This document shows positions 12,831 to 49,236 of a stretch of DNA of 64,000 bases, in pieces. The notes beneath the pieces were generated by a model that was not told the origin of the DNA, did no database searches, and worked only from the letters and a program-made list of their open reading frames with translations. Origin of the DNA: Candidatus Omnitrophota bacterium (GTDB taxonomy: Bacteria > Omnitrophota > Gorgyraeia > JABMRG01 > JAFGKX01); NCBI GenBank assembly GCA_043797125.1, contig JAZDPX010000022.1, positions 1,065-65,064 on the forward strand, in the 5' to 3' direction. The position numbers and the translations under genes were made by a program. Each line of letters opens with the position of its first letter. Position 1 is the first letter of the stretch.

Positions 12831-12958
12831 AATTAAAAATTACAATTAAAAATTTAAAAACATAGATTGCTTCGCCCTCGCTTCGCTCGGGCTCGCAATG
12901 ACATTTTTTAATTTTGAATTGCAATTTTACATTTTGAATTTTTAATTTTTAATTTTAA
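12809..12958. repeat. AT-rich inverted-repeat element with a GC-rich centre (gattgcttcg...ctcgcaatgac) between the LysM gene and aspS
   Basis: Arms of about 50 nt; the centre motif is also found at 5961-6010. Confidence 0.6.
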
Positions 12959-22902: not shown

Positions 22903-25900
22903 TTAATCTACAGCTGCTGGTTCTTTCTGATTTTCTTCTGCGGGGGGCTCTGCTTTGCTTTTCTCTTCAACTGGCTGTTGCTGCACCTGGGCATCTGCGG
23001 CCCTCTCTTTTTTTTCAATCTCTTCCTGAGCAAACTTAACAGAGACAATCTTGGATATGCCGCTTTTTTCCATTGTGATGCCGTACATAACATCAGCTAT
23101 ACTTATGGTCCTTTTATTGTGGGTTATAATAATAAACTGCGTACTCTGAACAAACTCCCCTAATATCCTATTAAAGCGGTCTATGTTTGCTTCATCAAGA
23201 GGCGCGTCCATTTCATCTAAAACACAGAAAGGTGTCGGTTTTACTTTAAAAAGGGCAAAAAGCAAGGCAACCGAAGTCAGGGCCTTTTCTCCTCCGGAAA
23301 GAAGCGATATGCTTTGCAGCTTTTTTCCCGGGGGACGGACCATTATCTCAATGCCGCTTTCCAATATATCCACCTGGTCTATTAAATATATATCGGCAAC
23401 GCCTCCGCCAAAAAGCAGCCTGAAATATTCCCTGAAATAAACCCGTATCTTGTCAAAGGTCTCGATAAATAACGCGCGCGTGGTGCGGTTTATCCTGTTT
23501 ATTGCCTTGTGCAGGGATTCTTTGGCATTTATTAAATCCTGCTGCTGGGATGTTAGGAAATCATATCTCTCCTGCAATTCTTTATGTTCTTCAATAGCAA
23601 CCAGGTTAACAGGCCCCATCTTATCTATCCTGTCAGTAAAATCATGGATCTCGGCCTCTATTTGCTGCCAGTTTTCATTATTGTCAAATGTTATAACTTG
23701 CTGATCAAGGTCTGCCTTGTAAACCTGTTGAATCCTTGACCTTATGCTGTCGGCCTCGTAACTTAATTCGGTAATATTTATCTGCAGCCTGGATATATTA
23801 TCTTTAAGCTCATCCATTTCCTGCTGGCGTTTCAGAGCTTCACGCTCCTGCTTTTCTATTTGCGCTGCCATCGAATCGCGCTTTAGGCCAAGGTCGGATA
23901 TCTTATTGCCGATCTGCTGTTTTTGCTCTTCTAAAATATCGTTTTCCTGCATCATCCTCTGCGACTCGCTCTTAAGAAACTCTACTCTTTCATCGCCTTC
24001 GGCTATCTGCTGAATTCTGCTGTTTAGATTTACCTGTTCTTTGGCTTGCGTGTCCTTAAGCATGTTCAGGGTGTCTTCCTGCGAGCTGTATTTTTCCGAA
24101 AGCAGGGATAATTCGGTTTTTATCTGGGCAAGACCGATGAGCAGGGCCTCTTTTTCAGACGCGCTTAACTCGATGATCTTTTGTTTTTCCGCAATAAGTT
24201 CCTGCAGGCCTTGATACGCGGACTCAACACTGCATAGCTTTTCATTAAAAAGCTGATTCTGTCTTTTTAAAGACTCCTGCTCCTGCGAAAGCTCTCCTAA
24301 CTCCAATTCAACAAGATTAAATTCCTCTTCTAATTTTTCAAGTTCCGAACGTTCTCTGGTTTTATCGTTTTCCCGCAAAGCAAAAGCCTTTTCTTCGTTT
24401 CTTAAAACATCTTCCTTGGCCTGGACATCTTTTCTGCAGGAATCTACCTGCGCAAGCAAATCGATTTTTTCATTTTTAAGTATTTCAATTTTTCTCTTTA
24501 GCTCCTCTATCTCACCGGGGAGCTGTTCTACTCTAAATCTTCTTCCCACAAGACCCGTATATTCTCCCGGGCCAATGCCGCCTCCTGTAATTTTATTATA
24601 GGTTACGCAGCTTGCGTCTTTTGTAACTACTTTGATATTTTTATTACCCCTGGCCATGGAAATGGCCTGGTCTATTGAATCAGCTAAAAATATACCTTCG
24701 AATAAACACCAAACAAGCGCCTGATTAGTGCCTGAGGCCTCGATAAAATCGCTTAAATTTTGCGCCTGATGAACGTTAAGGGCTTCACTGCGCTGTATGC
24801 ATTTATCAAGAATAATAAATGAGGCAATGCCCTTGTGGTTATTTTTCAGGTAATCTAGAGCTCTTTTTGCCGCAGCTTCATTTTTAACAACAATAGACTG
24901 CAATTCATTACCAAGACAAGCCTCTAGCGCCCTTTCATATCCAGGCCTTACCTTAATAATATCTGTCAGCACGCCTACAAAATCGCGCCTTTCCTCGTCG
25001 GATGCCTCGATCATTTTAAGATAGGCCTTTGCCCCGTCGCTTAAGCCTTCGTTTGACTCTGTCAAACTCTTTAGCACATCCAGTTTTGAAACAGAGCTGG
25101 ATAAATCCTTTTCCAGGGAAATAATAGAAGCATCTAACTCAGGAAGCCTTCCTGTAAGAGAATCTAAAGCCATGCGGCCTTGTTCCAATTGCCTGCTGCA
25201 GTCATTTACTTTATCAAGTTCATTCTGCAAGGCTGACTCAAATACCTTAAACTTTTCAGTGCGGGTTGTAATGTCTGTATTTGCGGATTCTTTTTCAGCC
25301 GCGAGCCTCCTGTGCCTGTGGCTTAATGCCGATATATCAGCCGCGGCCTTTGCTATCGAATTCTTGAGCCTTGACTGCTCGGATAAATTATCCATCATAT
25401 CCAGCTTTGCTTTTGATATAATGGCCTCGCATTCTTTTATATTAGAAGAAAGCTCCGAAAGCGTGCTTTCTCCTTGCTGAACGCTTATTTGCTTATTTTC
25501 TTTATTTGACTGCAGCTGATCAAAAGTAACCTGCAGCTGCTCTATCTGTTTTCTTAAGTACTCTATTTTTGCCTGTGCCTGTTTTATTTCCGTGTTCAGG
25601 TATTCCCGACGGGATACAATCTCGTTTATCCTGCCGTTATTAAGGGCGATGTTTGAGGAATTTTTTTCAATTGTGCTTGTTGTGGACATCAGGTGAGTCT
25701 TGGCATCAAGCACTTCCTGTTCCAAAAAGTTAAGTTCCTGCCTCCTGGTGTGAAAATCCATGGTGTGCGCATTGAGTTCTAAAGAGAAAGAGCCTTCTTT
25801 TGATTTAAGCAGCTGGAATTCTCTGTCTTTTTCTTGCTTATTAGCTTTTATGTTTTTGTATTTATAAAAAGAATGCTTAAGGTCTAATTCTTTCAGGTGT

Positions 25901-26559
25901 TCAAATTCCAGTTTATACTTTTCTGCTTTCTTTGCCTGTCTCTCTATTGAATTTATCTGCCTTTTTACTTCGCTTATAATATCGGAAAGTCTGGCAAGGT
26001 TATTCTCGGTATGCTCGAGTTTTCTTAAAGCTTCTTTTTTCCTGTTTTTATATTTTGTTATGCCGCTGGCCTCCTCAAATATTTCCCTTCTATCTTCAGG
26101 CCTGGCGCTAAGCACCCTATCCATCTTGCCCTGCTCCGCTATGGAATAAGAGCTTGTGCCGATGCCTGTGCCTGCGAGCAGGTCATTGATATCTTTTAAT
26201 CTTACCTGGGTCTTGTTAAGGAGGTATTCGCTTTCGCCTGAGCGAAATACTCTGCGGGTTATTGTAACTTCGTCGTACTCAATTGGAAGGGACCTGTCTT
26301 CATTGGAAAGGGTTAAGGATACTTCCGCGATATTGACTGCTTGGGTAGTGTCTGTGCCGTTAAAGATGACATCTTCCATCTTTCCGCCGCGCAGCTCCTT
26401 GGCAGACTGCTCCCCAAGCACCCACTTGATGGAATCGCTGATATTACTTTTCCCGCAACCGTTCGGACCGACAATAGCTGTAACTCCTGGCTCGAATTCG
26501 AGTTTGGTGCGGTCTGCAAAAGACTTAAATCCGAATAATTCTAATTTTTTAAAATACAT
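22903..26559 (-). CDS. smc: chromosome segregation protein SMC
   Basis: Walker A FEPGVTAIVGPNGCGKSN, long coiled coils, hinge, C-terminal LSGGEKALTSVALLFAL and DEMDAPLD; 1218 aa. Confidence 0.93.
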   Translation of the reverse strand: MYFKKLELFGFKSFADRTKLEFEPGVTAIVGPNGCGKSNISDSIKWVLGEQSAKELRGGKMEDVIFNGTDTTQAVNIAEVSLTLSNEDRSLPIEYDEVTITRRVFRSGESEYLLNKTQVRLKDINDLLAGTGIGTSSYSIAEQGKMDRVLSARPEDRREIFEEASGITKYKNRKKEALRKLEHTENNLARLSDIISEVKRQINSIERQAKKAEKYKLEFEHLKELDLKHSFYKYKNIKANKQEKDREFQLLKSKEGSFSLELNAHTMDFHTRRQELNFLEQEVLDAKTHLMSTTSTIEKNSSNIALNNGRINEIVSRREYLNTEIKQAQAKIEYLRKQIEQLQVTFDQLQSNKENKQISVQQGESTLSELSSNIKECEAIISKAKLDMMDNLSEQSRLKNSIAKAAADISALSHRHRRLAAEKESANTDITTRTEKFKVFESALQNELDKVNDCSRQLEQGRMALDSLTGRLPELDASIISLEKDLSSSVSKLDVLKSLTESNEGLSDGAKAYLKMIEASDEERRDFVGVLTDIIKVRPGYERALEACLGNELQSIVVKNEAAAKRALDYLKNNHKGIASFIILDKCIQRSEALNVHQAQNLSDFIEASGTNQALVWCLFEGIFLADSIDQAISMARGNKNIKVVTKDASCVTYNKITGGGIGPGEYTGLVGRRFRVEQLPGEIEELKRKIEILKNEKIDLLAQVDSCRKDVQAKEDVLRNEEKAFALRENDKTRERSELEKLEEEFNLVELELGELSQEQESLKRQNQLFNEKLCSVESAYQGLQELIAEKQKIIELSASEKEALLIGLAQIKTELSLLSEKYSSQEDTLNMLKDTQAKEQVNLNSRIQQIAEGDERVEFLKSESQRMMQENDILEEQKQQIGNKISDLGLKRDSMAAQIEKQEREALKRQQEMDELKDNISRLQINITELSYEADSIRSRIQQVYKADLDQQVITFDNNENWQQIEAEIHDFTDRIDKMGPVNLVAIEEHKELQERYDFLTSQQQDLINAKESLHKAINRINRTTRALFIETFDKIRVYFREYFRLLFGGGVADIYLIDQVDILESGIEIMVRPPGKKLQSISLLSGGEKALTSVALLFALFKVKPTPFCVLDEMDAPLDEANIDRFNRILGEFVQSTQFIIITHNKRTISIADVMYGITMEKSGISKIVSVKFAQEEIEKKERAADAQVQQQPVEEKSKAEPPAEENQKEPAAVD

Positions 26560-26638
26560 TTATAATAGCAACTTAAGGTTATGGGGACGGTTCTCGCCCA
26601 AGATTAAGAAGTGTCCCCTTCTTCCATTTTTCACTGCT

Positions 26639-26688
26639 GGGGACATTTCTCACGCTTGGGTGAGAAATGTCCCCTATCTTTTTATTAT
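26639..26688 (+). terminator. perfect 15-bp-stem palindrome followed by a T-tract (intrinsic-terminator-like, plus strand)
   Basis: ggggacatttctcac gcttgg gtgagaaatgtcccc tatctttttatt; an imperfect copy of the same arms lies at 26583-26618. Confidence 0.4.
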
Positions 26689-26793
26689 AATATCAGAATA
26701 ATACAGGAGTGTCAAGGGGGGAAATGTAACCAAGTCACAAGTCACCAGTCACAAGTCACCAGTAAAAGATGGGGCTTTTGCAATGCGAGGTGC

Positions 26794-27106
26794 ATCAGAA
26801 AATTTTTGCATAAGCCTTGGGCATTGCCGAAAAAACAATAGCGGAAGATTTGGCTTGCTTGTTTTGGTTGTAGGCAAAACATAGGCCGGCCTGCCTACCG
26901 TCAGGCAGGCAGGCCGGGGACACCGAAACTGAACCCTTGGATAGTAGGGCAGGCTAAAGCCTGCCCTACTATCTGTAGATGAATTTCGGAGGGGCCCCGG
27001 CCGAACGACTATAGTTTTGCCCAAATCTGAAGCGTGTTTTTGAGGCAATGCCCAAGGCTTATATTAGTGATTTGAGTTTTTTGGTGAGTGCCGGAAGGAC
27101 TTCGAA
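26794..27106. repeat. left copy of a ~300-bp direct repeat flanking the island; contains MITE-family-B element (TIRs at 26812-26837 and 27035-27060) plus 45 bp identical to the etfA 3' end
   Basis: Near-identical to 33114-33407 apart from a 31-bp palindrome insertion (26885-26918); internal perfect hairpin gatagtagggcaggc-taaa-gcctgccctactatc. Confidence 0.85.
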
Positions 27107-27786
27107 GCGGTCAAAATGTTCAGAACTTCTCTCTCTTTTGCTTCCTCAAGACCTTTTACAGCTTTCTTCTGCCACTTTGGGAGCATTGAATTAAAGGCAT
27201 ACTTAATAATTGCAGCTTCGCCTTTATTAATCAACGCCTTAAGAATTTCCACGGCGGCATTTTTATCCTTTAGTGTCTTTTCTGCTCTAGTACGTCTTTG
27301 AAAAATTATTAATTTATGCAGGGCGAAATTAGCGGGATGAGGAAGATTAACTTCAATGCCTTCAATTTTAACTTTTATAGTATCCTGTATTAGCAAGTCT
27401 AGAAACCTTAAAGCTTGGGCATTAAGACTAAACTGGGGCAATTGATAAGGCCTATCTAAACCGCGGCCTTTTTCGGGAACTAAGAATTCCACTATAAGAT
27501 CCGCATGCTCAAGCTGAATGTATCCCTCCGCTCCCTTGAAACCAACAATAAATCCTAGATCTTTTAGTAGTGTCGGAATATCTGCTTTCATTTTAGTTTT
27601 TGAAGGCGTTGGAACCAAAAAGTCAACATCGCGCGTTTTGATAATAGTCGGATATTCTATGCTTCCAAAATAATCCTTGTAAAAAGGTATGCACCAACTA
27701 CCGATCAAAATAATATCCTTCAAAACCCCTGCCTGACTTAATCGCCGAAGAACTTCTAGGCACAAATTATACTGATTCTTTTCCAC
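27064..27786 (-). CDS. nucleotidyltransferase-fold protein (minimal NTase-like, GS...DVD motif); last 14 codons are encoded by the flanking repeat
   Basis: ILIGSWCIPFYKDYFGSIEYPTIIKTRDVDFLV resembles the hG[GS]...DhD NTase motif; overlaps the upstream small gene by 20 nt. Confidence 0.35.
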   Translation of the reverse strand: MEKNQYNLCLEVLRRLSQAGVLKDIILIGSWCIPFYKDYFGSIEYPTIIKTRDVDFLVPTPSKTKMKADIPTLLKDLGFIVGFKGAEGYIQLEHADLIVEFLVPEKGRGLDRPYQLPQFSLNAQALRFLDLLIQDTIKVKIEGIEVNLPHPANFALHKLIIFQRRTRAEKTLKDKNAAVEILKALINKGEAAIIKYAFNSMLPKWQKKAVKGLEEAKEREVLNILTASKSFRHSPKNSNH

Positions 27787-28084
27787 GCAAGGTACTCCTT
27801 AAAAACCTTATTTGTTTCTTAATTTGAGATAATAATTTCCGGTATTTAGCCCTGTATTCCTTTACTTCTTTATACCTTTTTATTTCAGCATCGGGCACCT
27901 TCCCTTTATAAATGAATTTTACTTTTCCTTTCTCCCGCAGCAAAAGATAATAATATTCGTGGCCTTTAACTTTCTTCTTAATAAGGCTGCCTTTTGGCAA
28001 TTTAGCCAATTCTCGTTCATAGCCGGCTTTCATACGCAAAGAATTTTCAAGTTCTTCCTTAAGTACTCCTTTTATTACTCCCAT
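27767..28084 (-). CDS. hypothetical small K/E/Y-rich protein, operonic with the NTase-fold gene
   Basis: 105 aa; no recognisable motif; 20-nt overlap with the downstream gene. Confidence 0.3.
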   Translation of the reverse strand: MGVIKGVLKEELENSLRMKAGYERELAKLPKGSLIKKKVKGHEYYYLLLREKGKVKFIYKGKVPDAEIKRYKEVKEYRAKYRKLLSQIKKQIRFLRSTLRGKESV

Positions 28085-28382
28085 ATTGGGTTCTCCTTAA
28101 ACTGGTTGGTTATCATACAAACTACATAGTAGTATATATTGTATGGTAACAGATGTCAAATAAAAAGTTACCATACCATTAATAGTATTCTTGATTTTGT
28201 ATGGTAACTGAGGCAGAGACGTTTTCTATTTTGTTCGGGAAGCTGTTTCCCGAACAAGTTTGGAACACTTTCCCGAATGATTCCGAAAGCGTCTTGTTGA
28301 GATGTGGAATTAGACGTTTCTTAAAAAACGCTGAATATCGTTATGGCTGCCGGCAAGAACAAATTCAACTAAATCGCCTTCC

Positions 28383-28646
28383 TCATAGAGCCTCTATGTG
28401 CTTCTTGGCCTCCTTTGCGTTCTTGTATGTCTTGCCATTTTGAGCTGACAACTTCTCGATTTTGGCCCACTCACTTGAGGTATAAGGCGACTGTACCGTA
28501 ACCTTACAGGGCAACAGTATAATACCGTCTTTACTTACACCAAAGGCGATTGAGGCGCCGGTAGTAACATGCAAAATCTTTCTAATGCGATTAGGTATGG
28601 TAACCTGCCCTTTGGATGTGATTTTAGCGGTTTCTATTATAGTCAT
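28383..28646 (-). CDS. AbrB/MazE/SpoVT-fold DNA-binding protein (antitoxin-like, solitary)
   Basis: MTIIETAKITSKGQVTIPNRIRKILHVTTGASIAFGVSKDGIILLP is a swapped-hairpin AbrB/MazE N-domain. Confidence 0.6.
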   Translation of the reverse strand: MTIIETAKITSKGQVTIPNRIRKILHVTTGASIAFGVSKDGIILLPCKVTVQSPYTSSEWAKIEKLSAQNGKTYKNAKEAKKHIEAL

Positions 28647-28814
28647 TTTAACCTCCTTGTATTCCTACTTCCTTACTTCCTTACATCCTTACATCCAACA
28701 GAAGTATACACTACAATATAGCGTTTGTCAAGACCGAAGGCAGGCCGAACGACTCCGAAAACGTCTCTTGAGCGGGAATAATATTAGTAGCTTTGGTAGG
28801 TATTGTTTGGGTAC

Positions 28815-30164
28815 TTATTGTTTTTCAATCACTATTTTGCTTTTTAACTTTTTTTCTCTATTTGCTAGCAATGCCTTTGCGTTGCTTACCAACTCATCAT
28901 ATTCTGGTATGTTTTGTCCTTTTTCTATAAATTCTTTAAGATCAGATATGCCAACCTCTATGCTGCAGTCACAGTGGTAAACGTTTATATAGCCCAAAGC
29001 AAAAAGGTATAAAATATTACTTTGTTCCTTTGCATATTCTGCTTGTAGAAAATCTATTATCTGCACTATATTACCTGATGGGTTTGTTTTAATTTTTTGA
29101 TAATATTTCAGTAAATCTTTTGGATTTTTATTTTTAATAGCAAAGAAAGCATAATTATAATTAGCAAGTGGCCTTATTTCATCATCTGTAACTTTATCTG
29201 TGTGGTGTTTAGCTGCTGATAAATCATTATCCACCACATAACATAACCTTGCTATGTCTAAATGCGCTTTTGAATCATCCGGCTTAATTCTCAATATATT
29301 CTCATAATATATTTTACTTTCCTTTGGCTTATCATATCTTAGCTTTTCACCTAAAAACCTATATATTTCTATTAAATAAGTTTGTATGTGTTCTTTAAAA
29401 ATACTCAAATTTGGAAAATCTTCTGGCTTTTTGTTTGAGATTAATAAATTTAGCTTTTCTAAAATAGCTAAACATTCATTTAATCGCCCTCTCGTGCTTA
29501 AGCTTAGGGCTATTATAAAAAGGCTAATTTCAGTTATATTAGTAGAAACAACTTGTATGTCATTGAAAAAAGCATTGTCTAATATTTTCCAATATCTTCC
29601 TTTTATGCTATCATCGATATGTTTGATTAATACAGGACGTGCAAACTCTGGAAGCAATCTATATAAATAAGTGAATTTTAGCTTAAACTCAGATGTCTTT
29701 TCTTTGTTGTCAAAACCTTCTAAGGTATACCCCCAAATTATTAAATCTGTCATTCTTTTTCGTGCATACCCTTCTGCCCTTTCACGGCTTTTCATAGAGA
29801 AATCTGATGGCATACTTCTTGCAATGATAGATCTTGATAAATTCAACTCGTCAATTTTTGAAGATATAATCTTTATAATGGATTCGTAGTGTTTTTTTGT
29901 TTCTTCCGTGTAATCAATTGCAAATAGAATTTTTATTCTATTAGAAAAAAATAATCTGCCTGAAAAATATCTCCAATATAAGGTGTAAAGTAACCCTAAA
30001 ATGCAGGATATTGCAATAATATATCTACCGTCTTGAATAAATGGCTTTAGCAAGGAAGAAAGGATTAAATATATAAGTATTACGACAAGAAATAGCCCTT
30101 TTTTTGTTCTCATAAACTCGTCGTCTTTTTCAATGAAGGTTTTAATAATATTTTCTATACACAT
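28815..30164 (-). CDS. membrane protein with two N-terminal TM helices and a long alpha-helical (TPR-like) cytoplasmic domain, function unknown
   Basis: TM1 LFLVVILIYLILSSLL, TM2 YIIAISCILGLLYTLYW; the rest is helical and repeat-like; gene is visibly AT-rich. Confidence 0.4.
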   Translation of the reverse strand: MCIENIIKTFIEKDDEFMRTKKGLFLVVILIYLILSSLLKPFIQDGRYIIAISCILGLLYTLYWRYFSGRLFFSNRIKILFAIDYTEETKKHYESIIKIISSKIDELNLSRSIIARSMPSDFSMKSRERAEGYARKRMTDLIIWGYTLEGFDNKEKTSEFKLKFTYLYRLLPEFARPVLIKHIDDSIKGRYWKILDNAFFNDIQVVSTNITEISLFIIALSLSTRGRLNECLAILEKLNLLISNKKPEDFPNLSIFKEHIQTYLIEIYRFLGEKLRYDKPKESKIYYENILRIKPDDSKAHLDIARLCYVVDNDLSAAKHHTDKVTDDEIRPLANYNYAFFAIKNKNPKDLLKYYQKIKTNPSGNIVQIIDFLQAEYAKEQSNILYLFALGYINVYHCDCSIEVGISDLKEFIEKGQNIPEYDELVSNAKALLANREKKLKSKIVIEKQ

Positions 30165-30299
30165 AGCATTTTACCCTGATTTCATCTAATCCATTTTAAG
30201 CGACCTTCGGACATTTTATGTTACCCCATATACGGCAACCATCGTTTTCTTATCAAGCAACGCTGTGCCACTTACATCCCAATCGGATACATCTTATTT

Positions 30300-32693
30300 C
30301 TATGATGCTTCGATTGTTTCAATTTCCTGCAACAAGGTCTCATTGGCCAGAATATGTAATAAAATTTTTGCCAAGCCTTTCATTGTGTATGATACTAATT
30401 CGGATGGTTCAAACTGCATCTTTTCATCACTGTATTTATTCAAGCTTTCTTCTTTCTTTAATCGTTGGTAGAGCTCATAATAGAATACCAAGGAGAGTAA
30501 ATAAACAGCCGTTTTATAAGTCCGTTGAACAATTTCAATTTGTTTACCTATTACTTTCCTTGCCCTTATAAACTTATCTAGTTCCAATGAATTCATATTT
30601 ATCGCTATAGCATCAATCAAGCACCCTTCTTGGCTAGATTCGTGAAGATAGCAAATATCCGTCTCATACCAATTATAATTTTCCCAGCATTTGTAATTAT
30701 CTTCTTTGTCCTCTTCGTTTTTTTCTTTATAGACCTCTATGAGCTTCGGCAGAGAATATTCCTTCTTCTTGTCTACTTCTTCTTCTCGAAACTCTCCATG
30801 AGGTTTATCTATTACAATATCAGCTATTAATCTATGTAGACCATCAGGAGAGCTCATTTCTATGTTAATCGGCACTTTAGTGCCAATTGGCAATTCTTTC
30901 TTTGGCTTTATCCTTAACTTAATATCCCCTTCATTTGGCCCCACGACATTGACATCTAAAACTTCTTCATAATCACCACCCGGCCCTACCGGACCGGGAC
31001 CTTTCCCTGTATATGGCCTAAGGACTTTTATCTTCAGCTCACCTTTATCATGAGGCCTTATGAGATATTCGTTCTCCACATCAGTTTCGATGTTTATTTT
31101 GCATTCACCATTCTGTGGGAGCATTTTAATATCACCCGGTTTTAAGTTCTTAAATTGAAAATATGTTGGATACCGCTTCCCAGTAAATTTTTCTTTTTTT
31201 GTTTCGATTTCCTTTTTTACTTTGGTCAATTCTCGCCCAATGACTCCTCCGGCTAAGCCCAACAATTTTTCAATCTCTTTGTCATCCCTTAATAATTTAC
31301 CAACGATACTTTTGAGGAATTTCTCATCTTTAGGGTTCGCGAAAATCTGCTCTTTGCGCCATCTCTCATCAAGAGAGGTGAGATAATCATTATCCTTCAA
31401 TTCTTTAGTAATATTATCTATAAGATTTCTGTATTCAACCTTATCCCTCATTTGAGACCGAGATGACATAAATATGTCTTCATGTAATTCCCTCGGCATG
31501 GCCGAGCAATCAACGCTTACTAGCAAGTGGCCTTTCAAATATGCCTTTTTTAGGTCCTGACTAACAAATCTATTATCTATAGAGTGCTGAACTTGACCAT
31601 TGACAGAAAAGACTAGGGCCATATCTCTGATAAATTCTCTAGGTTCAAGTTCTTTTTTGAATACAAATACCTCAATCGGATATTCGACATTGTCGGATTT
31701 AATTTTTGCAGTAAATATGTTTTCTACGCTATCCCTGCTGTCTAAAAAACACCTCATTCTGTTGCCATGCATTATTTTAGTAGGTGAGTGGCTGGCTCTG
31801 TATCTTGTTTCATATAACAATACCGGTAAGGCCGGTTTATACAAATACCTGTTCAGTTCGCGCCAAAGGTCCAGTGTTATATCAGATGGATTTCGGAGGT
31901 CGTAATTAAACAGTTTGATATATGTGCCACCGGCAAATTTTCTTCCCGACAGGTTTAAATCTAAAGGTTGGCTAGTAAACTCAAAAATTTTGCCATCCGC
32001 ATTTATACAATATTCATACCACGACGCTCTAACGCTTTCACCAGTGCCCCTGTTCCGCCTAACAAGCGTAAATCCAAATGGCTGGTTGTCATCCAATAGA
32101 TTTTTTCTAGAAATAATCAATTGGTATCTGTTATTTCCGCAAAAAGGCAATACTGCTGTGCCTCCCATGTTGTATTTGCCTTGCACAAAAAAGATTTTTA
32201 TTTTATTTTTTTTGTTAAGCGAGACTAGTGTATTAGGAAAGTTTTGAGGATGTTGTCCCTCTCCATTATCATAGATACAAATATTTGGGGCCGTTTTTGA
32301 CTCCTCTGCAATTATCTGTATGTTAGATGCCAGCTCTCTTCTTTTTGGATCTGTAAGGTCTGTATAAGCTGCATCGTTTATACCGAAATATCTTTCAAGA
32401 GCTTCTTCCATTGACTTCGGAGCGTTAGGACCCTCCGGATGCTCACCTTTCTGAAAGCAGGCTTTTATTAATATGGCATCTATAGAGTTAGTTATCTTTT
32501 CGATTAAGGATGGAACGGCCTGTGGGGACTGACCGGTAACTGTCCCTAAATTATTTGCAGCATCCCCATAGTGGCGCCAGTTTCCCTGGTTGCTCAAAAC
32601 TGGATGTTTGTCTATTGCTCTCGCAACATCTTCTTCTGAACGAGCATTGGCCAAGTTTAGGCAAAGTCTTTTTATGGCAGTATTATCCATCAT
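30300..32693 (-). CDS. GHKL (Bergerat-fold) ATPase, MutL/MORC-like, with a ~600-aa C-terminal region of unknown function
   Basis: N-box SLIEKITNSIDA, G1 box IYDNGEGQ, G2 box GKYNMGGTAV in the first 190 aa; 797 aa; AT-rich. Confidence 0.6.
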   Translation of the reverse strand: MMDNTAIKRLCLNLANARSEEDVARAIDKHPVLSNQGNWRHYGDAANNLGTVTGQSPQAVPSLIEKITNSIDAILIKACFQKGEHPEGPNAPKSMEEALERYFGINDAAYTDLTDPKRRELASNIQIIAEESKTAPNICIYDNGEGQHPQNFPNTLVSLNKKNKIKIFFVQGKYNMGGTAVLPFCGNNRYQLIISRKNLLDDNQPFGFTLVRRNRGTGESVRASWYEYCINADGKIFEFTSQPLDLNLSGRKFAGGTYIKLFNYDLRNPSDITLDLWRELNRYLYKPALPVLLYETRYRASHSPTKIMHGNRMRCFLDSRDSVENIFTAKIKSDNVEYPIEVFVFKKELEPREFIRDMALVFSVNGQVQHSIDNRFVSQDLKKAYLKGHLLVSVDCSAMPRELHEDIFMSSRSQMRDKVEYRNLIDNITKELKDNDYLTSLDERWRKEQIFANPKDEKFLKSIVGKLLRDDKEIEKLLGLAGGVIGRELTKVKKEIETKKEKFTGKRYPTYFQFKNLKPGDIKMLPQNGECKINIETDVENEYLIRPHDKGELKIKVLRPYTGKGPGPVGPGGDYEEVLDVNVVGPNEGDIKLRIKPKKELPIGTKVPINIEMSSPDGLHRLIADIVIDKPHGEFREEEVDKKKEYSLPKLIEVYKEKNEEDKEDNYKCWENYNWYETDICYLHESSQEGCLIDAIAINMNSLELDKFIRARKVIGKQIEIVQRTYKTAVYLLSLVFYYELYQRLKKEESLNKYSDEKMQFEPSELVSYTMKGLAKILLHILANETLLQEIETIEAS

Positions 32694-32696
32694 AGA

Positions 32697-32921
32697 TTAA
32701 AACTTGAATGTGTTGTTATTCGATTTGGCGTTAAAAAACACTTTTATCCTCTTTAATTCACCATCTACAGCGTGAAATATTTTGGTAACCTCATCATTTG
32801 TATACTGATATATGCCTTTATTAGAGCAGTTGCCCAATTTCCTAATGGCTTCTAGGACATTCTGAGTCCTTCTGGCCGCAACCCTTTTAAATCTATCTGT
32901 CTTTGCTTCGTTTGCCGTCAT
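32697..32921 (-). CDS. small basic hypothetical protein, translationally coupled to the GHKL ATPase gene
   Basis: 74 aa; stop lies 4 nt before the ATPase ATG. Confidence 0.35.
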   Translation of the reverse strand: MTANEAKTDRFKRVAARRTQNVLEAIRKLGNCSNKGIYQYTNDEVTKIFHAVDGELKRIKVFFNAKSNNNTFKF

Positions 32922-33113
32922 ATACCTTACTCCTTTTCAATAACTTCTTATTAAAAAGCATAGCATACAGTAAACAATTTGTCAACTATTTTTTAAATAA
33001 ATCTTAACAATTTACAAAATATTTTTAAAATAGTTCTAATTTTTATGCTGACGTCTAAGTCATGCGTTTTGCCGGAGCTCTTATGATAAAGTTCAAATCA
33101 TTGCGGATGAAAT

Positions 33114-33407
33114 ATCAGAAAATTTTTGCATAAGCCTTTGGGCATTGCCGAAAAAACAATAGCGGAAGATTTGGCTTGCTTGTTTTGGTTGTAGGCAAAA
33201 CATAGGAGTGCAGGCTGGGGACACCGAAACTGAACCCTTGGATAGTAGGGCAGGCTAAAGCCTGCCCTACTATCTATAGGTGAATTTCGGAGGGGCCCCG
33301 GCCGAACGACTATAGTTTTGCCCAAATCTGAAGCGTGTTTTTGAGGCAATGCCCAAGGCTTATATTAGTGATTTGAGTTTCTTGGTGAGTGCCGGAAGGA
33401 CTTCGAA
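33114..33407. repeat. right copy of the ~300-bp direct repeat (MITE-family-B copy 33132-33361 plus the true 3' end of etfA)
   Basis: Read by eye against 26794-27106 with no mismatch noticed except one indel (tttttt vs tttctt), which shifts the frame of the left copy, plus the missing palindrome insertion; not computed. Confidence 0.85.
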
Positions 33408-34553
33408 TAAATCGCCCACGATACCGTAAGTGGCGACTTTGAATATGGGGGCATCGGGGTCTTTATTTATCGCGATGATAATATCCGACGACGACATCCC
33501 TGCTAAATGCTGAATCTGGCCTGATATGCCGCAGGCGATATATATCTTTGGGCAGACGGTCTTTCCTGTTTGCCCTACCTGGTGCGCGTATGATATCCAG
33601 TTAGCGTCAACAGCAGCGCGCGAGGCGCCGACAGCCGCGCCTAAAACTTCCGCAAATTCGCGTACAACAGAAAAATTTTCCGGCTTTCCAAGGCCTCTTC
33701 CGCCTGAAACAATAAAATCAGCTTCGGAAAGGTTTATCTTTTCCTTGTCCTCTTCTACAACATCAACTATTTTGGTCCTTGATTTAAGCAAGCTATCCGG
33801 ATAAGTCTTTTTTATCACTTGCCCTTTTCTCGCCGTGTCAATTTCCGCCTCTTTCATAACCTTGTGCCTTACAGTCGACATCTGCGGCCTGTGATTCGGG
33901 CAGATTATTGTCGCCATAATGTTTCCGCCAAAAGCGGGGCGCGTCTGCAAAAGCAGGCGTCTTTCTTCGTCTATATCCAGGCCTGTGCAATCAGCAGTAA
34001 GGCCTGCGTCTATTTTAACAGCGACTCTTGAGATCAAAGAGCGGCCAATTGAAGTCGCTCCGCACAACACTATTTCAGGCTTATACTCGTTTATCAACTC
34101 GACTATTATATTGGTATAGGGTTCATCCAGATAGTGTCCCAGTTTCGGATTATCAACCACATATACTTTATCAGCGCCTCTATGTATTATATCCTGTGTT
34201 CTATCGTTGACCTTGTTTCCGATTAATATACAGGATAATTCAACGTCAAGCCTGTCAGCGAGCTCTCTGCCTTTGCCAAGCAATTCATACGTAATAGACT
34301 GGATAATGCCTTTTTTCTGTTCCGCTATAATGCAGACGCCTTTATAATCAGCGAGATTTTTCTGTAAGTCCTCTTCTCTTCGCAATATAATCGCGTCAAA
34401 CTTGCAGGCATCAACGCATGCGCCGCAAAGAGTGCATTTGTCCATATTAATGACGGCAAGCCTGCCTTCCATGTAAATGGCGTCGTAAGGGCAGGCCTTC
34501 AGGCACAATTTGCAGCCAACGCATTTTTCTGTAATTACTTCAATTCCAGTCAT
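33360..34553 (-). CDS. etfA: electron transfer flavoprotein alpha subunit with N-terminal 2x[4Fe-4S] ferredoxin domain
   Basis: [16 protein letters not shown] and [16 protein letters not shown], followed by the ETF-alpha FAD domain. Confidence 0.88.
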
Positions 34554-34670: not shown

Positions 34671-35462
34671 TCAAAACTTCGGTTTTAACTCATCTTTTAT
34701 GCGCTCGATTAATTTCGCGACAGATTCTTGTATCTCGCCGTGAAAGATCTCACCGCCGCTGCGCGGCTGCGGAGTAAAAATCTTCACGACTTGAGTCGGT
34801 GAACCGTTAAGCCCTGCTAATTTTTCGCTAATTCCTAAATCAGCTATTGTCCATTTTATAATCTGAGCTTTTTTCGCAGCCATTTTTCCCTTTAAAGACG
34901 GGATGCGGGGCTCGTTTATCTCTTTAACTACCGTAAAGACAGCTGGCAGGGGGGTTTCTATTACCTCGAAACCTTCCTCTGTCATTCTTTCGACCCTGGC
35001 AGAACCGTTTTCTATCTTTTCTATTTTTTTAACATAAGTAACCTGCGGTATATCCAAATGCGCTGATATGCCGGGGCCTACCTGCGCAGTGTCTCCGTCA
35101 GCAGCCTGTTTTCCGCAGAATATAACATCAAAAGATTTTATTTTTGTTATTGCGCTCGCAAGTGTATAACTTGTAGCCCAGGTGTCGCTTCCTGCAAATG
35201 CCCTGTCAGTCAAAAGTATAGCCTCATCGCAGCCTAATGATATGGCCTCGCGAAGCGCTGTTTCCACCTGCGGCGGGCCCATGGAAAGAACGGTCACTTT
35301 GCCGCCGAGCTTTTCCTTGGTCCTGACAGCCTCTTCTATGGCATACATATCAAATGGATTAATAATAGACTCAACGCCCTCTCTTATAAGGGTGTTGGTC
35401 TCTGGATTTATCCTTACGTTAGTTGTATCCGGGACTTGTTTTATGCAAACGATTATGTTCAT
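34671..35462 (-). CDS. etfB: electron transfer flavoprotein beta subunit
   Basis: MNIIVCIKQVPDTT...; 263 aa. Confidence 0.9.
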   Translation of the reverse strand: MNIIVCIKQVPDTTNVRINPETNTLIREGVESIINPFDMYAIEEAVRTKEKLGGKVTVLSMGPPQVETALREAISLGCDEAILLTDRAFAGSDTWATSYTLASAITKIKSFDVIFCGKQAADGDTAQVGPGISAHLDIPQVTYVKKIEKIENGSARVERMTEEGFEVIETPLPAVFTVVKEINEPRIPSLKGKMAAKKAQIIKWTIADLGISEKLAGLNGSPTQVVKIFTPQPRSGGEIFHGEIQESVAKLIERIKDELKPKF

Positions 35463-35463
35463 T

Positions 35464-35506
35464 TATTGGTCTATGGTCTATAGTCGATAGTCTATGGTCT
35501 ATAATG
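35464..35506. repeat. heptamer tandem array (GGTCTAT GGTCTAT AGTCGAT AGTCTAT GGTCTAT) between bcd and etfB
   Basis: 7-bp period RGTCNAT x5. Confidence 0.7.
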
Positions 35507-35510
35507 ATAA

Positions 35511-36665
35511 CTATTTTTTTAACGATTCTTTGATAATCTCCGAAGCGATAACGCCGCGCTGAATCTGATTTGTGCCTTCGTAAATCTGCGTTATCTTCGC
35601 GTCGCGCATATATTTTTCAACCGGGTATTCCTTCATATATCCGTATCCGCCGAATACCTGCACAGCGTCGGTGGTAACTCTCATACACATATCTGACGCA
35701 AAAAGTTTTGACTGCGCAGATATTTTTGATATGTCCTTCGCGCCTGAATCAATGGCCTTTGCCGCGTAATATACAAGCGCCCTTGCCGCCTCAATCTGCG
35801 TATCCATATCAGCCAGCATAAACTGCATGCCCTGAAAACTGGATATGGGCTTGCCAAATTGCACTCTCTCTTTGGCGTATTTTACCGCGTGATCAAGCGC
35901 CCCTTGGGCAATTCCCACTGCCTGCGCGCCGATTCCCGGACGGGATTTATCAAATGTCTTCATCGCGACTATAAACCCGTAGCCTTCTTTACCTAATATA
36001 TTTTCTTTTGGGATTTTACAGTCAGTAAACACAAGCTCTCTTGTAGCCGATGCCCTTATTCCCATCTTGTCCTCTTTTTTGCCGAATTCAAAACCAGGGG
36101 TGCCTTTCTCAACAATAAACGCGCTTGCTCCGCGGGAACCTTTTGTCTTATCGGTAATTGCTATTACAGTATATGTTTCTGCCTCTCCGCCGTTTGTAAT
36201 CCACTGCTTTGTGCCGTTTAAAATATAATAATCGCCCTGTCTTTTAGCGGTTGTTGCAACTGCGCCGGCGTCGCTTCCTGCGCCTGCCTCTGTCAATCCA
36301 AATGCAGCGAGCTTTTTGCCTTTAGCAATATCGGGCAAATACTTTTTCTTCTGCTCTTTGGTGCCATATAATATTATAGGATATGCGCCTAAGGCTGTTG
36401 CTGCGTAGCAGACAGCTATGCCTCCGCAGGCTTTAGAAAATTCCTCTGTTGCTATGCATAGCTCTGTAACGCCTCCGCCTGTGCCGCCGAATTCTTCTTC
36501 AACAAAAATCCCGAAAAGATCGCTGTCTGCGATTGTCTTTATCACACCCCATGGAAATTCACCTGTCTCATCGTGGTGGGCTGCTACAGGCGCGATCTTC
36601 TCCCGAGCAATCTGGCGAGCGAGGTCGCGTATCATTATCTGTTCTTCGGTAAATAGGTAATCCAT
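35511..36665 (-). CDS. bcd: acyl-CoA dehydrogenase (butyryl-CoA dehydrogenase type)
   Basis: 384 aa; ACAD motifs and catalytic Glu region YEGTNQIQR; adjacent to etfBA. Confidence 0.85.
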   Translation of the reverse strand: MDYLFTEEQIMIRDLARQIAREKIAPVAAHHDETGEFPWGVIKTIADSDLFGIFVEEEFGGTGGGVTELCIATEEFSKACGGIAVCYAATALGAYPIILYGTKEQKKKYLPDIAKGKKLAAFGLTEAGAGSDAGAVATTAKRQGDYYILNGTKQWITNGGEAETYTVIAITDKTKGSRGASAFIVEKGTPGFEFGKKEDKMGIRASATRELVFTDCKIPKENILGKEGYGFIVAMKTFDKSRPGIGAQAVGIAQGALDHAVKYAKERVQFGKPISSFQGMQFMLADMDTQIEAARALVYYAAKAIDSGAKDISKISAQSKLFASDMCMRVTTDAVQVFGGYGYMKEYPVEKYMRDAKITQIYEGTNQIQRGVIASEIIKESLKK

Positions 36666-36683: not shown

Positions 36684-36773
36684 ATCTATGGTCTATAGTC
36701 GATGGTCAATGGTCTATGGTCTATAATTATTGCAAACGATAGACTATCGACTATTGACTATAGACTATAGACC
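36684..36773. repeat. heptamer array (x5) plus its inverted copy (ATAGACT ATCGACT ATTGACT ATAGACT ATAGACC) upstream of bcd
   Basis: About 90 bp forming a large palindrome built from RGTCNAT units. Confidence 0.7.
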
Positions 36774-36776
36774 AAT

Positions 36777-39057: not shown

Positions 39058-39070
39058 CTGTCGCCTTTAA

Positions 39071-39107
39071 CTATAGACCATCGACCATTGACCACTGACC
39101 ATAGACT
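39071..39107. repeat. heptamer array (ATAGACC ATCGACC ATTGACC ACTGACC ATAGACT) upstream of fabG
   Basis: Same RGTCNAT family, reverse orientation. Confidence 0.7.
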
Positions 39108-39109
39108 AA

Positions 39110-39457
39110 TTATACGCTTTTTGCCTTTTTTGTTTTTGCGGCTATTTGCGCGCCCAAGCCGCGTATCTGCTTGCGCAGGGAATCTACCTTTGCCCTGGAA
39201 ATACTACCTGTCTTAGCCACCAGTTTCCCCAGTTCGGTATAAAGCCTCTCTTGCTTGGTCTTTAAAATCATTGCCTCAAGCGTAAGCTTGCTTTTTTCGG
39301 AAAAACTCTTTACGTGCTCTTCTCCTTTTTTAATCAAAACCGATGATTCATCCGCTGCCTTTTTTAAATAATCCTTGGTATGCTCCCAAAATTCCTTAAT
39401 ATCTGTCTCCACCTTCTTCATATCAATCTTATTATGCTCCTTTGTATTGCATGCCAT
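39110..39457 (-). CDS. hypothetical coiled-coil protein (phasin-like); start assigned to MACNTKEH, which has an upstream GGGAGG
   Basis: The track ORF extends over the REP palindrome; the internal Met has a good SD. Confidence 0.4.
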   Translation of the reverse strand: MACNTKEHNKIDMKKVETDIKEFWEHTKDYLKKAADESSVLIKKGEEHVKSFSEKSKLTLEAMILKTKQERLYTELGKLVAKTGSISRAKVDSLRKQIRGLGAQIAAKTKKAKSV

Positions 39458-44717: not shown

Positions 44718-44937
44718 TTACAGCTATTGTTTTACCTACTTTTGCCATTTCACCTTCTTTGCATAAAATTTCTTTTAAGATGCCGCCTGTAGGTGCAGGC
44801 ACATTGAACGTTGCCTTATCTGTAATCATCTCAACCAGGTCATCGCCTTCGTTGACCTTTGCACCTTCATCAACATGCCAGAACGATACTGTTGCTTCAA
44901 TAACGCCCTCGCCTATTTCAGGTAACACTACTTTCAT
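44698..44937 (-). CDS. standalone lipoyl-attachment domain protein
   Basis: 79 aa; LVEMITDKATFNVPAPTGG matches the lipoyl-lysine motif; overlaps the lipA stop. Confidence 0.7.
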   Translation of the reverse strand: MKVVLPEIGEGVIEATVSFWHVDEGAKVNEGDDLVEMITDKATFNVPAPTGGILKEILCKEGEMAKVGKTIAVIETKGE

Positions 44938-45790
44938 ATACCTCCATTGCCTCCTTGTATGCTTCCCTGGCCTTATACGAACTTCGTATAAACGGCCCGC
45001 TTAAAATCGATTTAAATCCTATGCACTCAGCAAAACTTTTGTAAAATTCGAACTGCTCTGGCGTAATGTATTCCTGCACATCCACACAAGCGTGATCAGG
45101 TTTTAGATACTGGCCTATTGTTAATACGTCGCAATCTACGCATTTTAAATCCTTAATAGCTGCTAAAACTTCCTGCCTTGTCTCGCCAAGTCCTAGTATT
45201 ATACCACTTTTTGTTAAAATGTCACTGTTGTTTTTTATAAATTTTAAAACAAAAAGAGAATCCTCATATTTTGCCTGCGGCCTTATTTTGCCGTACAGGC
45301 GCGGGACGGTCTCAATATTGTGCGCAAAAACATCGGGCCGTACCTGTATTATTTTGTTCAACAGAGTTTTGTCTGCTTTAAAATCAGGAGTCAGAATTTC
45401 TATTTTTATCCCGGGATTAAAAACCCTTACAGCTTCAATTGTATTTACAAAATACTCAGCTCCCGCGTCATCAATGTCATCGCGCGTAACTGATGTAATA
45501 ACTACATACTTAAGGCCTAGGTCTTTTACCGCATGGGCTATTCTTTGAGGCTCATCTGAATCCGGCGCCTGGGGCATACCGGTTTTCACTGAACAAAAAC
45601 CGCAGTTTCTAGTGCAGGTATTGCCCAGTATCATAAATGTAGCTTCCCTGTTTTGGAAGCACTCGCCGATATTCGGGCACCTTGCGCTCTGGCATACGGT
45701 GTGCAGGTTGTGGTTTTTTAGAAGCTCGTTCATCCGCTCTATCGCTTCTGTCGGCAAGGGCCTCTTGAGCCACTCCGGAAATGCGTTCAT
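44918..45790 (-). CDS. lipA: lipoyl synthase
   Basis: CPNIGEC auxiliary cluster motif and radical-SAM CTRNCGFC. Confidence 0.93.
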   Translation of the reverse strand: MNAFPEWLKRPLPTEAIERMNELLKNHNLHTVCQSARCPNIGECFQNREATFMILGNTCTRNCGFCSVKTGMPQAPDSDEPQRIAHAVKDLGLKYVVITSVTRDDIDDAGAEYFVNTIEAVRVFNPGIKIEILTPDFKADKTLLNKIIQVRPDVFAHNIETVPRLYGKIRPQAKYEDSLFVLKFIKNNSDILTKSGIILGLGETRQEVLAAIKDLKCVDCDVLTIGQYLKPDHACVDVQEYITPEQFEFYKSFAECIGFKSILSGPFIRSSYKAREAYKEAMEVYESSVT

Positions 45791-45819
45791 TTGTTAAAAC
45801 TTTTATCCTTCCATGTTTA

Positions 45820-45877
45820 CAGGCTTAAGGCCTTGCCGAAAAAACACGCTTCAGATTTGGGCAAAGCCTTAAGCCTG
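45820..45877. repeat. hairpin derived from MITE-family-B termini (caggcttaaggccttgcc...ggcaaagccttaagcctg)
   Basis: Carries the acacgcttcagatttgggcaa core shared with 27020-27060, 33320-33360 and 49850-49897. Confidence 0.7.
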
Positions 45878-45918
45878 TAATCATAAACAAGAGTATGTGT
45901 TTAGCATAACTTGTTATT

Positions 45919-46197
45919 TTAATGCGCCTGGGCGATTCTATGAATAACTTCGGAGATAAATGTCTGATATTTAATACCGAGCTGGCGGGCTCTATGTTTA
46001 ATGCTTGTCAGGTCGCGGCTGTTTACCCTGATATTTAAAACTGCGTCTTTTTTTCTTGCCGCCACAGCCTTAGCAATAATTGCCAATTCATCCTTGCCTA
46101 CATCTATATACTCGCCCTTTAAAAGGCTCTCTTCAATAGCTTTCTCTTGTCTTGTGAGATTGATTTTCCCCGTGTTATTTTTCATTTGTGTAGACAA
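45919..46197 (-). CDS. BrnA-like ribbon-helix-helix antitoxin family protein (orphan; no BrnT partner found)
   Basis: C-terminal NIRVNSRDLTSIKHRARQLGIKYQTFISEVIHR is the BrnA/COG3514 signature. Confidence 0.55.
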   Translation of the reverse strand: MSTQMKNNTGKINLTRQEKAIEESLLKGEYIDVGKDELAIIAKAVAARKKDAVLNIRVNSRDLTSIKHRARQLGIKYQTFISEVIHRIAQAH

Positions 46198-46391
46198 TTG
46201 TATATTATTATGCTGCTGATATCAAGTTTTATTCCGAAAATACGTAATAGTTCAGCCACTGTAAGTATCTCGACTCGGACGTAGCTGAGGCTTAAGCCTA
46301 CCTACCGGCAGGCAGGCTGTCTATCGTCTAGGGCGGGTCCTGTCTGGCGCCAATATATAACGGGGTTAATACTAACATAACAGTATTATTT

Positions 46392-46410
46392 GTCAAGAAA
46401 AACTCTTGAC
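46392..46410 (+). promoter_or_regulatory. palindromic operator candidate GTCAAGA-aaaac-TCTTGAC overlapping the -35 of the lexA-MTase promoter
   Basis: Perfect 7-bp inverted arms; -35 TTGACC (46406-46411), 17-bp spacer, -10 TATATT (46429-46434), ATG at 46442 (leaderless-like). Confidence 0.4.
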
Positions 46411-46441
46411 CTTTCGGTTTATTTTCGGTATATTGTAAACT

Positions 46442-48322: not shown

Positions 48323-48324
48323 AA

Positions 48325-49035: not shown

Positions 49036-49075
49036 CTAAGATTTTACATACCTTACCGAAGCGCTACACACAAGT

Positions 49076-49236
49076 GAGGTTTTTGCAATGCGAGGTGCAT
49101 TAGAAAATTTTTGCCAAATGTACTTTTAGGACTTATGGCGAGGAGCGGCTAAATTTAGATATTTGGGAAAGCGAGCGAGCCATAAGTCCAAAAGTACGGC
49201 AAAAATTTTCAGCACCGAGCATTGCAAAAACCGAAC
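49076..49236. mobile_element. MITE-family-A copy (TIRs ~TTTGCAATGCGAGGTGC / GCACCGAGCATTGCAAA) between the REase and lipB, overlapping the lipB 3' end
   Basis: Shares both termini with 6049-6210; the third copy (50110-50326) has a degenerate left end (gcaaaatgacc); interior is a palindrome acttatggcg...gccataagt. Confidence 0.65.

Follow-up and report, generated by a model that had tools for sequence, protein, structure and literature searches.

A horizontally acquired island at the 3′ end of etfA in an Omnitrophota bacterium, bounded by a duplicated gene end with a nested hairpin element

How did some 6 kb of AT-rich DNA come to lie between etfA and smc, and why does the end of etfA stand on both sides of it? 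We address this question for positions 27107-33113 of a 64,000-nucleotide stretch of a Candidatus Omnitrophota bacterium (assembly GCA_043797125.1, contig JAZDPX010000022.1, positions 1,065 to 65,064). This whole stretch is called the window, and all coordinates below refer to it unless a relative's locus is named. The AT-rich block, hereafter the island, is a horizontally acquired foreign insertion, and the two direct repeats that bound it are a segmental duplication of the etfA end. The route by which it arrived is weighed after the evidence for these two statements.

The composition of the island sets it apart from its surroundings. GC content is 0.28-0.39 against a window median of 0.42; in 2-kb windows it drops to 0.32 (z = -6.4), and tetranucleotide deviation reaches z = 5.8. 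Only two compositional outliers are found in the 64 kb, this island and a patch at 46-49.5 kb. GC at third codon positions is 0.25-0.41 in the island genes, except for an AbrB gene described below (0.49), and 0.44-0.48 in the flanking smc, etfA and etfB. An initial annotation of this DNA had read the block as AT-rich and foreign and had proposed a windowed-GC calculation, which bears it out. The phylogenetic distribution agrees: none of the six island genes occurs at any of the 80 related Omnitrophota etfA loci used as the comparison set (loci of relatives carry labels that begin with L). In 47 of these 80 loci etfA is followed by smc in the same orientation, and in about 39 the gap is at most 500 bp. 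The two closest species representatives (82% EtfA identity) have an etfA-smc gap of ~180 bp, and their smc promoter block aligns with 26560-26720. In the fully syntenic L099 (83% EtfA identity), etfA is followed by 144 bp and then smc, without the hairpin element described below. The two closest contigs carry neither island nor hairpin element. The nearest EtfA outside the source metagenome-assembled genome (MAG) is 85% identical; the collections searched held no same-species sequence, and no empty-site allele (etfA-element-smc) was obtained from them. Absent at related loci and deviant in composition, the block is a genomic island in the general sense. No tRNA, tmRNA target or known RNA was found at the locus.

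The repeats are located precisely at the ends of the foreign DNA. The pair recognized initially, at 26794-27106 (left, 313 bp) and 33114-33407 (right, 294 bp), is present, with 286 of 314 columns identical in a global alignment. The copies differ by seven substitutions, one 20-bp indel and one 1-bp indel, and share a maximal identical run of 100 bp. Each is composed of a 16-17-bp spacer on the smc side, a ~250-bp hairpin element flanked by TA, and the last 45 bp of etfA. In the right copy (element at 33130-33363) these 45 bp form the functional last 15 codons of etfA; in the left copy they are an orphan gene end, in which 44 of 45 bases agree with the real end of etfA. The encoded C terminus aligns with those of the closest relatives, so the 45 bp beside the element are the genuine etfA 3′ end, supplied by the right copy as the initial annotation had it. 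No homology extends past either repeat edge (shuffle tests, p = 0.44 and 0.91), and both edges are abrupt. Gene conversion between older repeats, considered because of an apparent degraded homology beyond the smc-side edge, was dropped on the same tests. Because the repeat runs past the element in both directions, by 16-17 bp and by 45 bp of genuine etfA, it is a segmental duplication of the etfA-end locus and not the product of two transpositions of the element. Without the TA-flanked element the repeat reduces to a 64-bp block (TTCGAAGTCC...CTAATATATGCAAAAATTTTCTGAT), in which the terminal 45 bp of etfA are followed by TA and 17 bp of spacer.

At the left junction the duplicated etfA end has been drawn into an island gene. 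This gene (27064-27786, reverse strand) encodes an NTP_transf_8 nucleotidyltransferase (NTase) of the GSU2403 family and matches Pfam PF12281 (E = 2.7e-24; 86.8 bits, cut-off 26.3). Its native part occupies 27107-27786 (226 codons), and its last 14 codons and stop are etfA-derived repeat read out of the etfA frame, as first described. The T/C indel then held responsible for the frameshift is not there. Base-by-base alignment shows the difference (27084 versus 33383) to be a substitution that is synonymous in the etfA frame, with no indel within the 45 bp. The NTase reads the repeat in another frame because the junction joins the two in different phase, and this alone changes the frame. The NTase stop (27064-27066) lies 5 nt from the etfA-equivalent stop. 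The native NTase sequence ends at residue 226 (...EVLNILT), and its homologues end at 226-233 residues; by this comparison, the foreign DNA ends 0-7 codons from the native NTase stop and without that stop.

The element nested within the repeats is 247-253 bp long, with TA on both sides and 28-nt inverted ends that are 93% complementary. The left copy lies at 26810-27062 (core 26813-27059). Its early description as a ~250-bp sequence with 26-bp inverted ends, like a miniature inverted-repeat transposable element (MITE), was apt: the window has four occurrences of the 26-nt end motif, and 100 shuffles have none. Short, non-coding and bearing terminal inverted repeats with a TA target duplication, the element shows the structural features of a TA-targeting MITE of the IS630/Tc1-like type, although its TA flanks are possibly part of the palindrome rather than a target duplication. 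Folded as single-stranded DNA, the repeat forms one long hairpin (-78 kcal/mol, z = -11.6). The first base of the element completes the etfA TAA stop codon as its third base. A terminator-like hairpin at 26886-26917 in the left element is deleted from the right copy. Within the window the family comprises two full copies, which stem from one duplication and are not independent, and two 65-nt mini-versions. No transposase was found in the window and no copy of the element in the public collections searched. The element is absent from 100 related loci; a scan of JGI metagenomes with its 21-mer core gave one chance match, inside an alcohol dehydrogenase gene, and two scans of IMG/VR yielded either no match or chance matches of 21 nt.

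The Correia elements of Neisseria are TA-flanked bacterial MITEs. The element shares with this class a length of ~250 bp, inverted repeats of 26-28 nt, TA at both ends, a non-coding sequence and a hairpin fold, and further resembles TA-flanked MITEs in lying at a gene end and providing part of a stop codon. It differs in being represented by two non-independent full copies and two 65-nt mini-versions, with no transposase known. MITEs that contribute codons to genes have been described (PMC2759123).

No tyrosine, serine or DDE recombinase is encoded by the six island genes according to Pfam, NCBIfam, PHROGs and PADLOC, which upholds the absence of integrase and transposase noticed at the outset, and none of the 20 other window genes scanned encodes a recombinase or transposase. 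Lacking a recombinase of its own, the island is not an autonomous integrative element. It does possess duplicated ends of the kind found in integrative and conjugative elements (ICEs), integrative and mobilizable elements (IMEs) and prophages, in the form of the 313- and 294-bp repeats, each with the terminal 45 bp of etfA. The cargo is a mosaic of four independent modules of defence or toxin-antitoxin type: p74 with a GHKL ATPase; TM449, a membrane protein; an orphan AbrB gene; and a DUF6788-type gene with the NTP_transf_8 NTase. A GHKL ATPase, a protein with two transmembrane (TM) helices, an AbrB/MazE-fold protein and an NTase had all been named in the initial annotation and are present, whereas its "NTase-fold pair" is not, the partner being of the DUF6788 type. 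The PADLOC search suggested there brought up no known defence system. With PADLOC v2 the six island proteins gave no significant match, the 105-residue DUF6788-type protein (p105) matching NDT_II-A only (E = 0.008, 13.7 bits). Gene neighbourhoods suggest a defence role for the cargo.

How, then, was the island inserted? We tentatively favour a non-autonomous island, similar to cis-mobilizable elements (CIMEs), that integrated in Campbell fashion at the etfA 3′ end and whose integrase is lost or acts in trans. A circular intermediate would have recombined once with the chromosome at the etfA 3′ end. The two 0.3-kb repeats would then be the recombinant junctions, functionally attL and attR, with the right copy keeping etfA intact and the left copy remaining as an orphan gene end. 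The integrase may have been deleted, possibly by the event that clipped the NTase stop, or may be supplied in trans. Islands of tyrosine integrases that target a gene end yield such a repeat of gene end plus short tail. The closest known systems are CIMEs and other decayed integrative islands at gene 3′ ends; ICESt1 and its related CIME lie at fda, and phage 21 and e14 at icd. The size and position of the 64-bp block match a classical att core that restores its target gene. Integrases also accompany homologues of the GHKL gene elsewhere (L092 and two plasmids), none of these at etfA.

Decay of ICEs and IMEs to CIMEs that retain attL and attR has been described (PMC5704250). The island, which has direct repeats at its ends and no integration or transfer genes, resembles such decayed islands, also in its accessory or defence cargo. 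It differs from them in its repeat of ~300 bp, a length owed to the nested lineage-specific hairpin, and in a boundary that clips the stop codon of a cargo gene; moreover, a cognate element that bears an integrase and uses this site is not known, and att function is putative here. Direct repeats recombine in a RecA-dependent manner, and repeats of 0.3 kb allow precise loss of the island by homologous recombination, whatever its origin. Under Campbell-type integration, the island would today have only two exit routes: a trans-acting integrase, or RecA-type recombination across the two repeats, by which the arrangement etfA-element-smc would be restored exactly. Variable loci with mobile cargo in Omnitrophota reportedly have a median size of 11.5 kb and a median number of seven per chromosome, and abound in genes of restriction-modification (RM) and toxin-antitoxin type, among them MvaI/BcnI endonucleases and ribbon-helix-helix antitoxins (bioRxiv 10.64898/2026.06.07.730766). 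An island in an Omnitrophota chromosome is expected because of this reported median. The present one is similarly small and synteny-interrupting and carries toxin-antitoxin-like genes, but the loci of the preprint are dominated by site-specific recombinases and insertion sequence transposases, and this island has neither.

Several observations weigh against Campbell-type integration. The repeat contains the lineage-specific hairpin and host spacer, neither of which a simple attP should carry, and an extra step is needed to place them there. The island might have been excised and re-integrated repeatedly in a single population, gene conversion might have acted, or the element might have inserted twice at the same TA. 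At the left junction, 0-7 codons from the NTase stop, that stop is removed, which is unusual for an att boundary; an arbitrary break or a secondary deletion would fit it better than a clean att end. The GC content of the modules ranges widely, from 0.29 to 0.44, so the cargo came together stepwise and need not have done so on a single element. Our searches turned up no integrase, cognate element, circular junction or empty-site allele. The earlier wording, an "integrative module" with an att-like duplication, is thus retained as to the foreign insertion, the duplicated gene 3′ end and the lack of a recombinase; with a hairpin and spacer in the repeat and the NTase stop removed, att sites are not established.

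Some of these observations are what a one-off, duplicative illegitimate insertion begun at the hairpin would explain, with no att site or integrase ever involved. We regard it as a serious competitor that also fits the anatomy, though as the less likely of the two. The 250-bp palindrome, a natural site of fork stalling or breakage, would stall or break a replication fork, or a long-stagger cut would be made there. By microhomology-mediated template switching, a 3′ end would then copy 6 kb of a foreign molecule present in the same cell, and its return upstream of the break would duplicate the palindrome and a few tens of base pairs on each side. Both breakpoints indeed lie within 50 bp of the very stable hairpin (z = -11.6), and only 16-17 bp and 45 bp are duplicated beyond it. 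The ends of the foreign DNA look arbitrary, the NTase being cut at or near its stop and extended by an out-of-frame tail of 14 codons. Duplication in situ accounts for lineage-specific DNA in both copies without extra steps, and the sharp repeat edges and the lack of a recombinase fit as well. A deletion-type outcome would presumably destroy etfA, so that only the duplication type would survive. The seven substitutions and two indels between the copies fit this model and Campbell-type integration alike. On the other side, junction microhomology cannot be demonstrated without a donor sequence, and the att-core-like size of the element-free repeat would be a coincidence. Islands with a duplicated gene 3′ end are, by established knowledge, usually the result of site-specific integration (PMC5704250).

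Two flanking elements of the same family, with intact inverted ends and TA flanks, could also be taken for a composite transposon, a unit of two MITE-like copies bracketing cargo and moved by a transposase in trans. This reading is very improbable and already largely refuted by the duplicated local flanks: the duplication passes both element ends, into 45 bp of etfA and 16-17 bp of spacer that are native to the present locus, and a moving unit would have brought foreign flanks and a short target duplication. The elements are furthermore in direct rather than inverted orientation, and the window has no transposase. Still less probable is a chimeric join across the repeated element during assembly. 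The contig does come from a MAG, and repeats are classic misassembly sites, but seven substitutions and 21 gap columns separate the copies and no identical run exceeds 100 bases, which makes them resolvable, and they were not collapsed. Both flanks are collinear with related genomes, an open reading frame spans the left junction, and the DUF6788 gene has counterparts in other Omnitrophota at 90-91% identity. That the island is ancestral and was lost in relatives, a reading left some room by the lack of a same-species genome for comparison, is the least credible of all, given its absence from all of the ~80 loci compared phylum-wide, those with the most similar EtfA (82-85% identity) included, its strongly deviant composition and the scatter of cargo homologues across phyla in unrelated contexts.

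The largest cargo gene (30300-32693, reverse strand) encodes a MORC/MutL-like GHKL ATPase of 797 residues, in which a Bergerat fold and transducer domain are followed by Ig-like beta domains and a helical C terminus. The match to Pfam HATPase_c_3 is weak (19 bits, cut-off 25); by structure the GHKL fold is clear, and the ATP-binding motifs are invariant across 31 homologues. With GHKL motifs and an S5/transducer domain, the protein fits the MORC/paraMORC group by structure. When 8,000 candidates were scored, at least 1,789 proteins fell into the family at E ≤ 0.001; every one is annotated as hypothetical. Members come from Omnitrophota, Planctomycetota, Actinobacteria, Bacteroidota and archaea. 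In the first three of these groups the homologues form one- or two-gene insertions between housekeeping genes, and their neighbours are often MazE-PIN, MNT-HEPN or NYN genes. Homologues on plasmids (30-32% identity) lie 0.3-3 kb from tyrosine recombinases, amid SIR2, DUF262, PAPS-reductase, VapBC and NYN genes; none was found on phage records or viral contigs.

Directly upstream of the ATPase gene lies p74 (32697-32921, reverse strand), which encodes a small protein. Its gene is conserved immediately upstream of the closest GHKL homologues: in L090-L093 (72-77% GHKL identity) a p74 homologue, 59-65% identical, stands 4-7 nt upstream, and this partner measures 74-79 residues among relatives. 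With this conserved order, p74 and the GHKL gene make up a two-gene module. The right inner edge of the island lies 192 bp upstream of p74. The stretch between them (32922-33113) has a promoter-like site at 32985-32957, and its first ~120 bp are homologous to the region upstream of the L092 p74 homologue (76% identity over 100 nt). In L092, a 7.4-kb contig, p74-GHKL lies between an RM system and a tyrosine integrase (Phage_integrase). RM genes adjoin GHKL in L090 and L092, and neither in this island nor in L081-L089.

The gene directly downstream of p74-GHKL, which may be a swappable partner, differs in each close relative. It encodes 275 residues in L090 (12515-13342), 209 in L092 (4883-5512), 251 in L093 (2606-3361) and 449 in the window; these partners share no sequence similarity, and three of the four have N-terminal TM helices. 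The window's version, TM449 (28815-30164, reverse strand), has two N-terminal TM helices, an alpha/beta domain and a TPR solenoid (structure model pLDDT 92.5). It belongs to an uncharacterised family and is the most AT-rich gene of the island (GC 0.29). Searches of GHKL, TM449 and p74 against PADLOC, PHROGs, NCBIfam and PDB sequences returned nothing significant, and PADLOC v2 matched none of 31 GHKL or 28 TM449 family members.

RM, nuclease and helicase partners are the usual context of paraMORC and MORC proteins (Iyer et al. 2008, PMC2292703). The island GHKL protein shares with these and with the GHKL-fused Shedu protein VcSduA (PMC12137116) the GHKL and S5/transducer domains, intact ATP-binding motifs and a sporadic spread across phyla; its homologues often have RM or defence genes as neighbours. 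It differs from both in having no fused or adjacent nuclease or superfamily II helicase, in its Ig-like beta and helical C-terminal half, and in its conserved upstream partner of 74-79 residues. We raise as a doubtful possibility that p74 and this MORC-like GHKL protein with C-terminal Ig-like domains are the core of an undescribed anti-phage system that uses interchangeable membrane effectors (TM449 in this case) and spreads across phyla on small islands.

At the left end of the island, the p105 gene (27767-28084, reverse strand) overlaps the NTase gene by 20 nt. The pair in L095-L098 has the same overlap and gene sizes, with 90-91% identity for the DUF6788 protein and 70-80% for the NTase; there the 105-residue products have precomputed DUF6788 matches. 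The two genes thus form a DUF6788 plus NTP_transf_8 module. In other Omnitrophota this pair is found among HEPN-MNT, AbiE, Fic, SIR2 and DpnI genes, and our search found no paper on its function. Two imperfect 42-nt palindromes in tandem (28109-28208; GTTAYCATAC...GTATGGTAAC), which contain a promoter-like site (28159-28131, 11/12), lie just upstream of the DUF6788 gene and are probably an operator. Promoter-like sites stand upstream of p74, AbrB and DUF6788, their total count being no higher than in shuffles.

The AbrB/MazE-fold, antitoxin-like gene (28383-28646, reverse strand; 87 residues; Pfam PF04014, TIGR01439) matches a PHROGs antitoxin family and is the sole island gene with a PADLOC or PHROGs match. 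No toxin reading frame was found beside it, so it is an orphan and not part of a type II toxin-antitoxin pair. Its GC content (0.44) is host-like. Inverted repeats of 24 nt at 28215-28238 and 28745-28768, 506 bp apart and 79% complementary, bracket the gene, which may be a separately inserted mini-cassette.

The genes on either side of the island are smc (22903-26559, reverse strand; 1218 residues; Pfam SMC_N, SMC_hinge), found directly after etfA in relatives, and etfA (33360-34553, reverse strand), which encodes a ferredoxin-fused EtfA of 397 residues (Pfam ETF, ETF_alpha, Fer4). In several relatives smc is ~5.3 kb long (L099, 11338-16635; also L001, L014, L034 and L058). The L099 gene contains an intein with a LAGLIDADG endonuclease (Pfam Intein_splicing, LAGLIDADG_3) that the window smc (3.66 kb) lacks. 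An extra gene of 273-276 codons without a Pfam match lies between etfB and etfA in L099 (9096-9926) and L100 (305-1126), which apart from the species representatives are the two closest relatives, and is missing from the window. A recurrent insertion hotspot between etfA and smc was considered and rejected: the wider spacing in L077, L079 and L010 is due to ordinary genes (carbamoyltransferase-like, membrane proteins, a small excisionase-family helix-turn-helix, acyl carrier protein-like), with no defence cargo. In L077 and L079 these genes fill 2-3 kb. The small excisionase-family gene (...LLTI.E.A.YL.VK.RTIYDW...GQWRFKKE.IDAW...) stands just upstream of smc in L010 (11558-11731) and L079 (2930-3151), which belong to two other Omnitrophota lineages.

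The native etfA-smc spacer (26560-26793) contains an smc promoter-like site at 26715-26687 (11/12 in a promoter scan), whose CTTGAC...TATAAT block can be aligned with L001 and L002, a hairpin at 26639-26674, heptamer repeats and a solo palindromic arm. The heptamers, (AGTCACA/C)n at 26731-26767, recur with (GGTCTAT)n-like tandems in other short spacers between core genes, such as etfB/acad and acad/fabF (35449-35525, 36685-36776, 39068-39110, 51707-51774). The solo arm (26770-26809), inside which the outer edge of the left repeat falls, belongs to a second palindromic intergenic family with ends like GGCTTTTGCAATGCGAGGTGC...GCACCG.GCATTGCAAAAGCC; other copies lie at 6044-6211, 49073-49237 and ~50100-50335. 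The copy at 49073-49237 provides the last codons and stop of lipB (...GFCNARC*), and that at 6044-6211 appears to end a neighbouring gene likewise. Very AT-rich elements of ~50-70 nt (AATTCAAAATT...TAAAATT...) at 7069-7145, 12808-12969, 52647-52697, 55566-55681 and 60335-60455 are intergenic, occur in both orientations and often form inverted pairs. RecO is encoded at 7152-7907.

The window holds a second AT-rich foreign island (45900-49050, GC 0.33-0.36) between lipA (44918-45790) and lipB (49209-49829). It encodes a CopG-like protein of 92 residues (45919-46197), a fusion of 626 residues comprising LexA DNA-binding, S24 peptidase and N6/N4 methyltransferase domains (46442-48322), and an MvaI/BcnI-family endonuclease (48325-49035). 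Beside the GHKL homologue of L090, too, there is a LexA-fused methylase; a common origin of the two islands was rejected, as this methylase and that of the window share only the LexA domain (61%). The 65-nt mini-hairpins at 45814-45880 and 49845-49910 share the ~45-nt terminal module of the hairpin element and are 92% alike, the first being TA-flanked. One immediately precedes lipA and the other lipB, and the pair brackets the second island together with lipB; all four copies of the family in the window border the two foreign islands. As a weaker addition to the account above, the hairpin family may mark reusable landing sites. One att-like site shared by both islands was rejected and remains a weak lead, since the second has no duplicated gene end and lipB lies inside its brackets.

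As a genomic island the locus adds little: the island itself is of an ordinary kind, repeat-flanked, integrase-less islands of defence or toxin-antitoxin genes are common, and such variable loci are reported to be frequent in Omnitrophota. It is a clean case of a gene end and a nested hairpin duplicated together, and would be a good test case for telling site-specific from duplicative illegitimate insertion. It also shows a cargo gene that has lost its own stop and is now terminated by reused etfA DNA in a different frame. The main cargo genes are uncharacterised. Through them a large family of MORC-like ATPases comes into view, whose members have a conserved small partner, occur in defence contexts and are missing from PADLOC; the GHKL module is a candidate new defence gene family.

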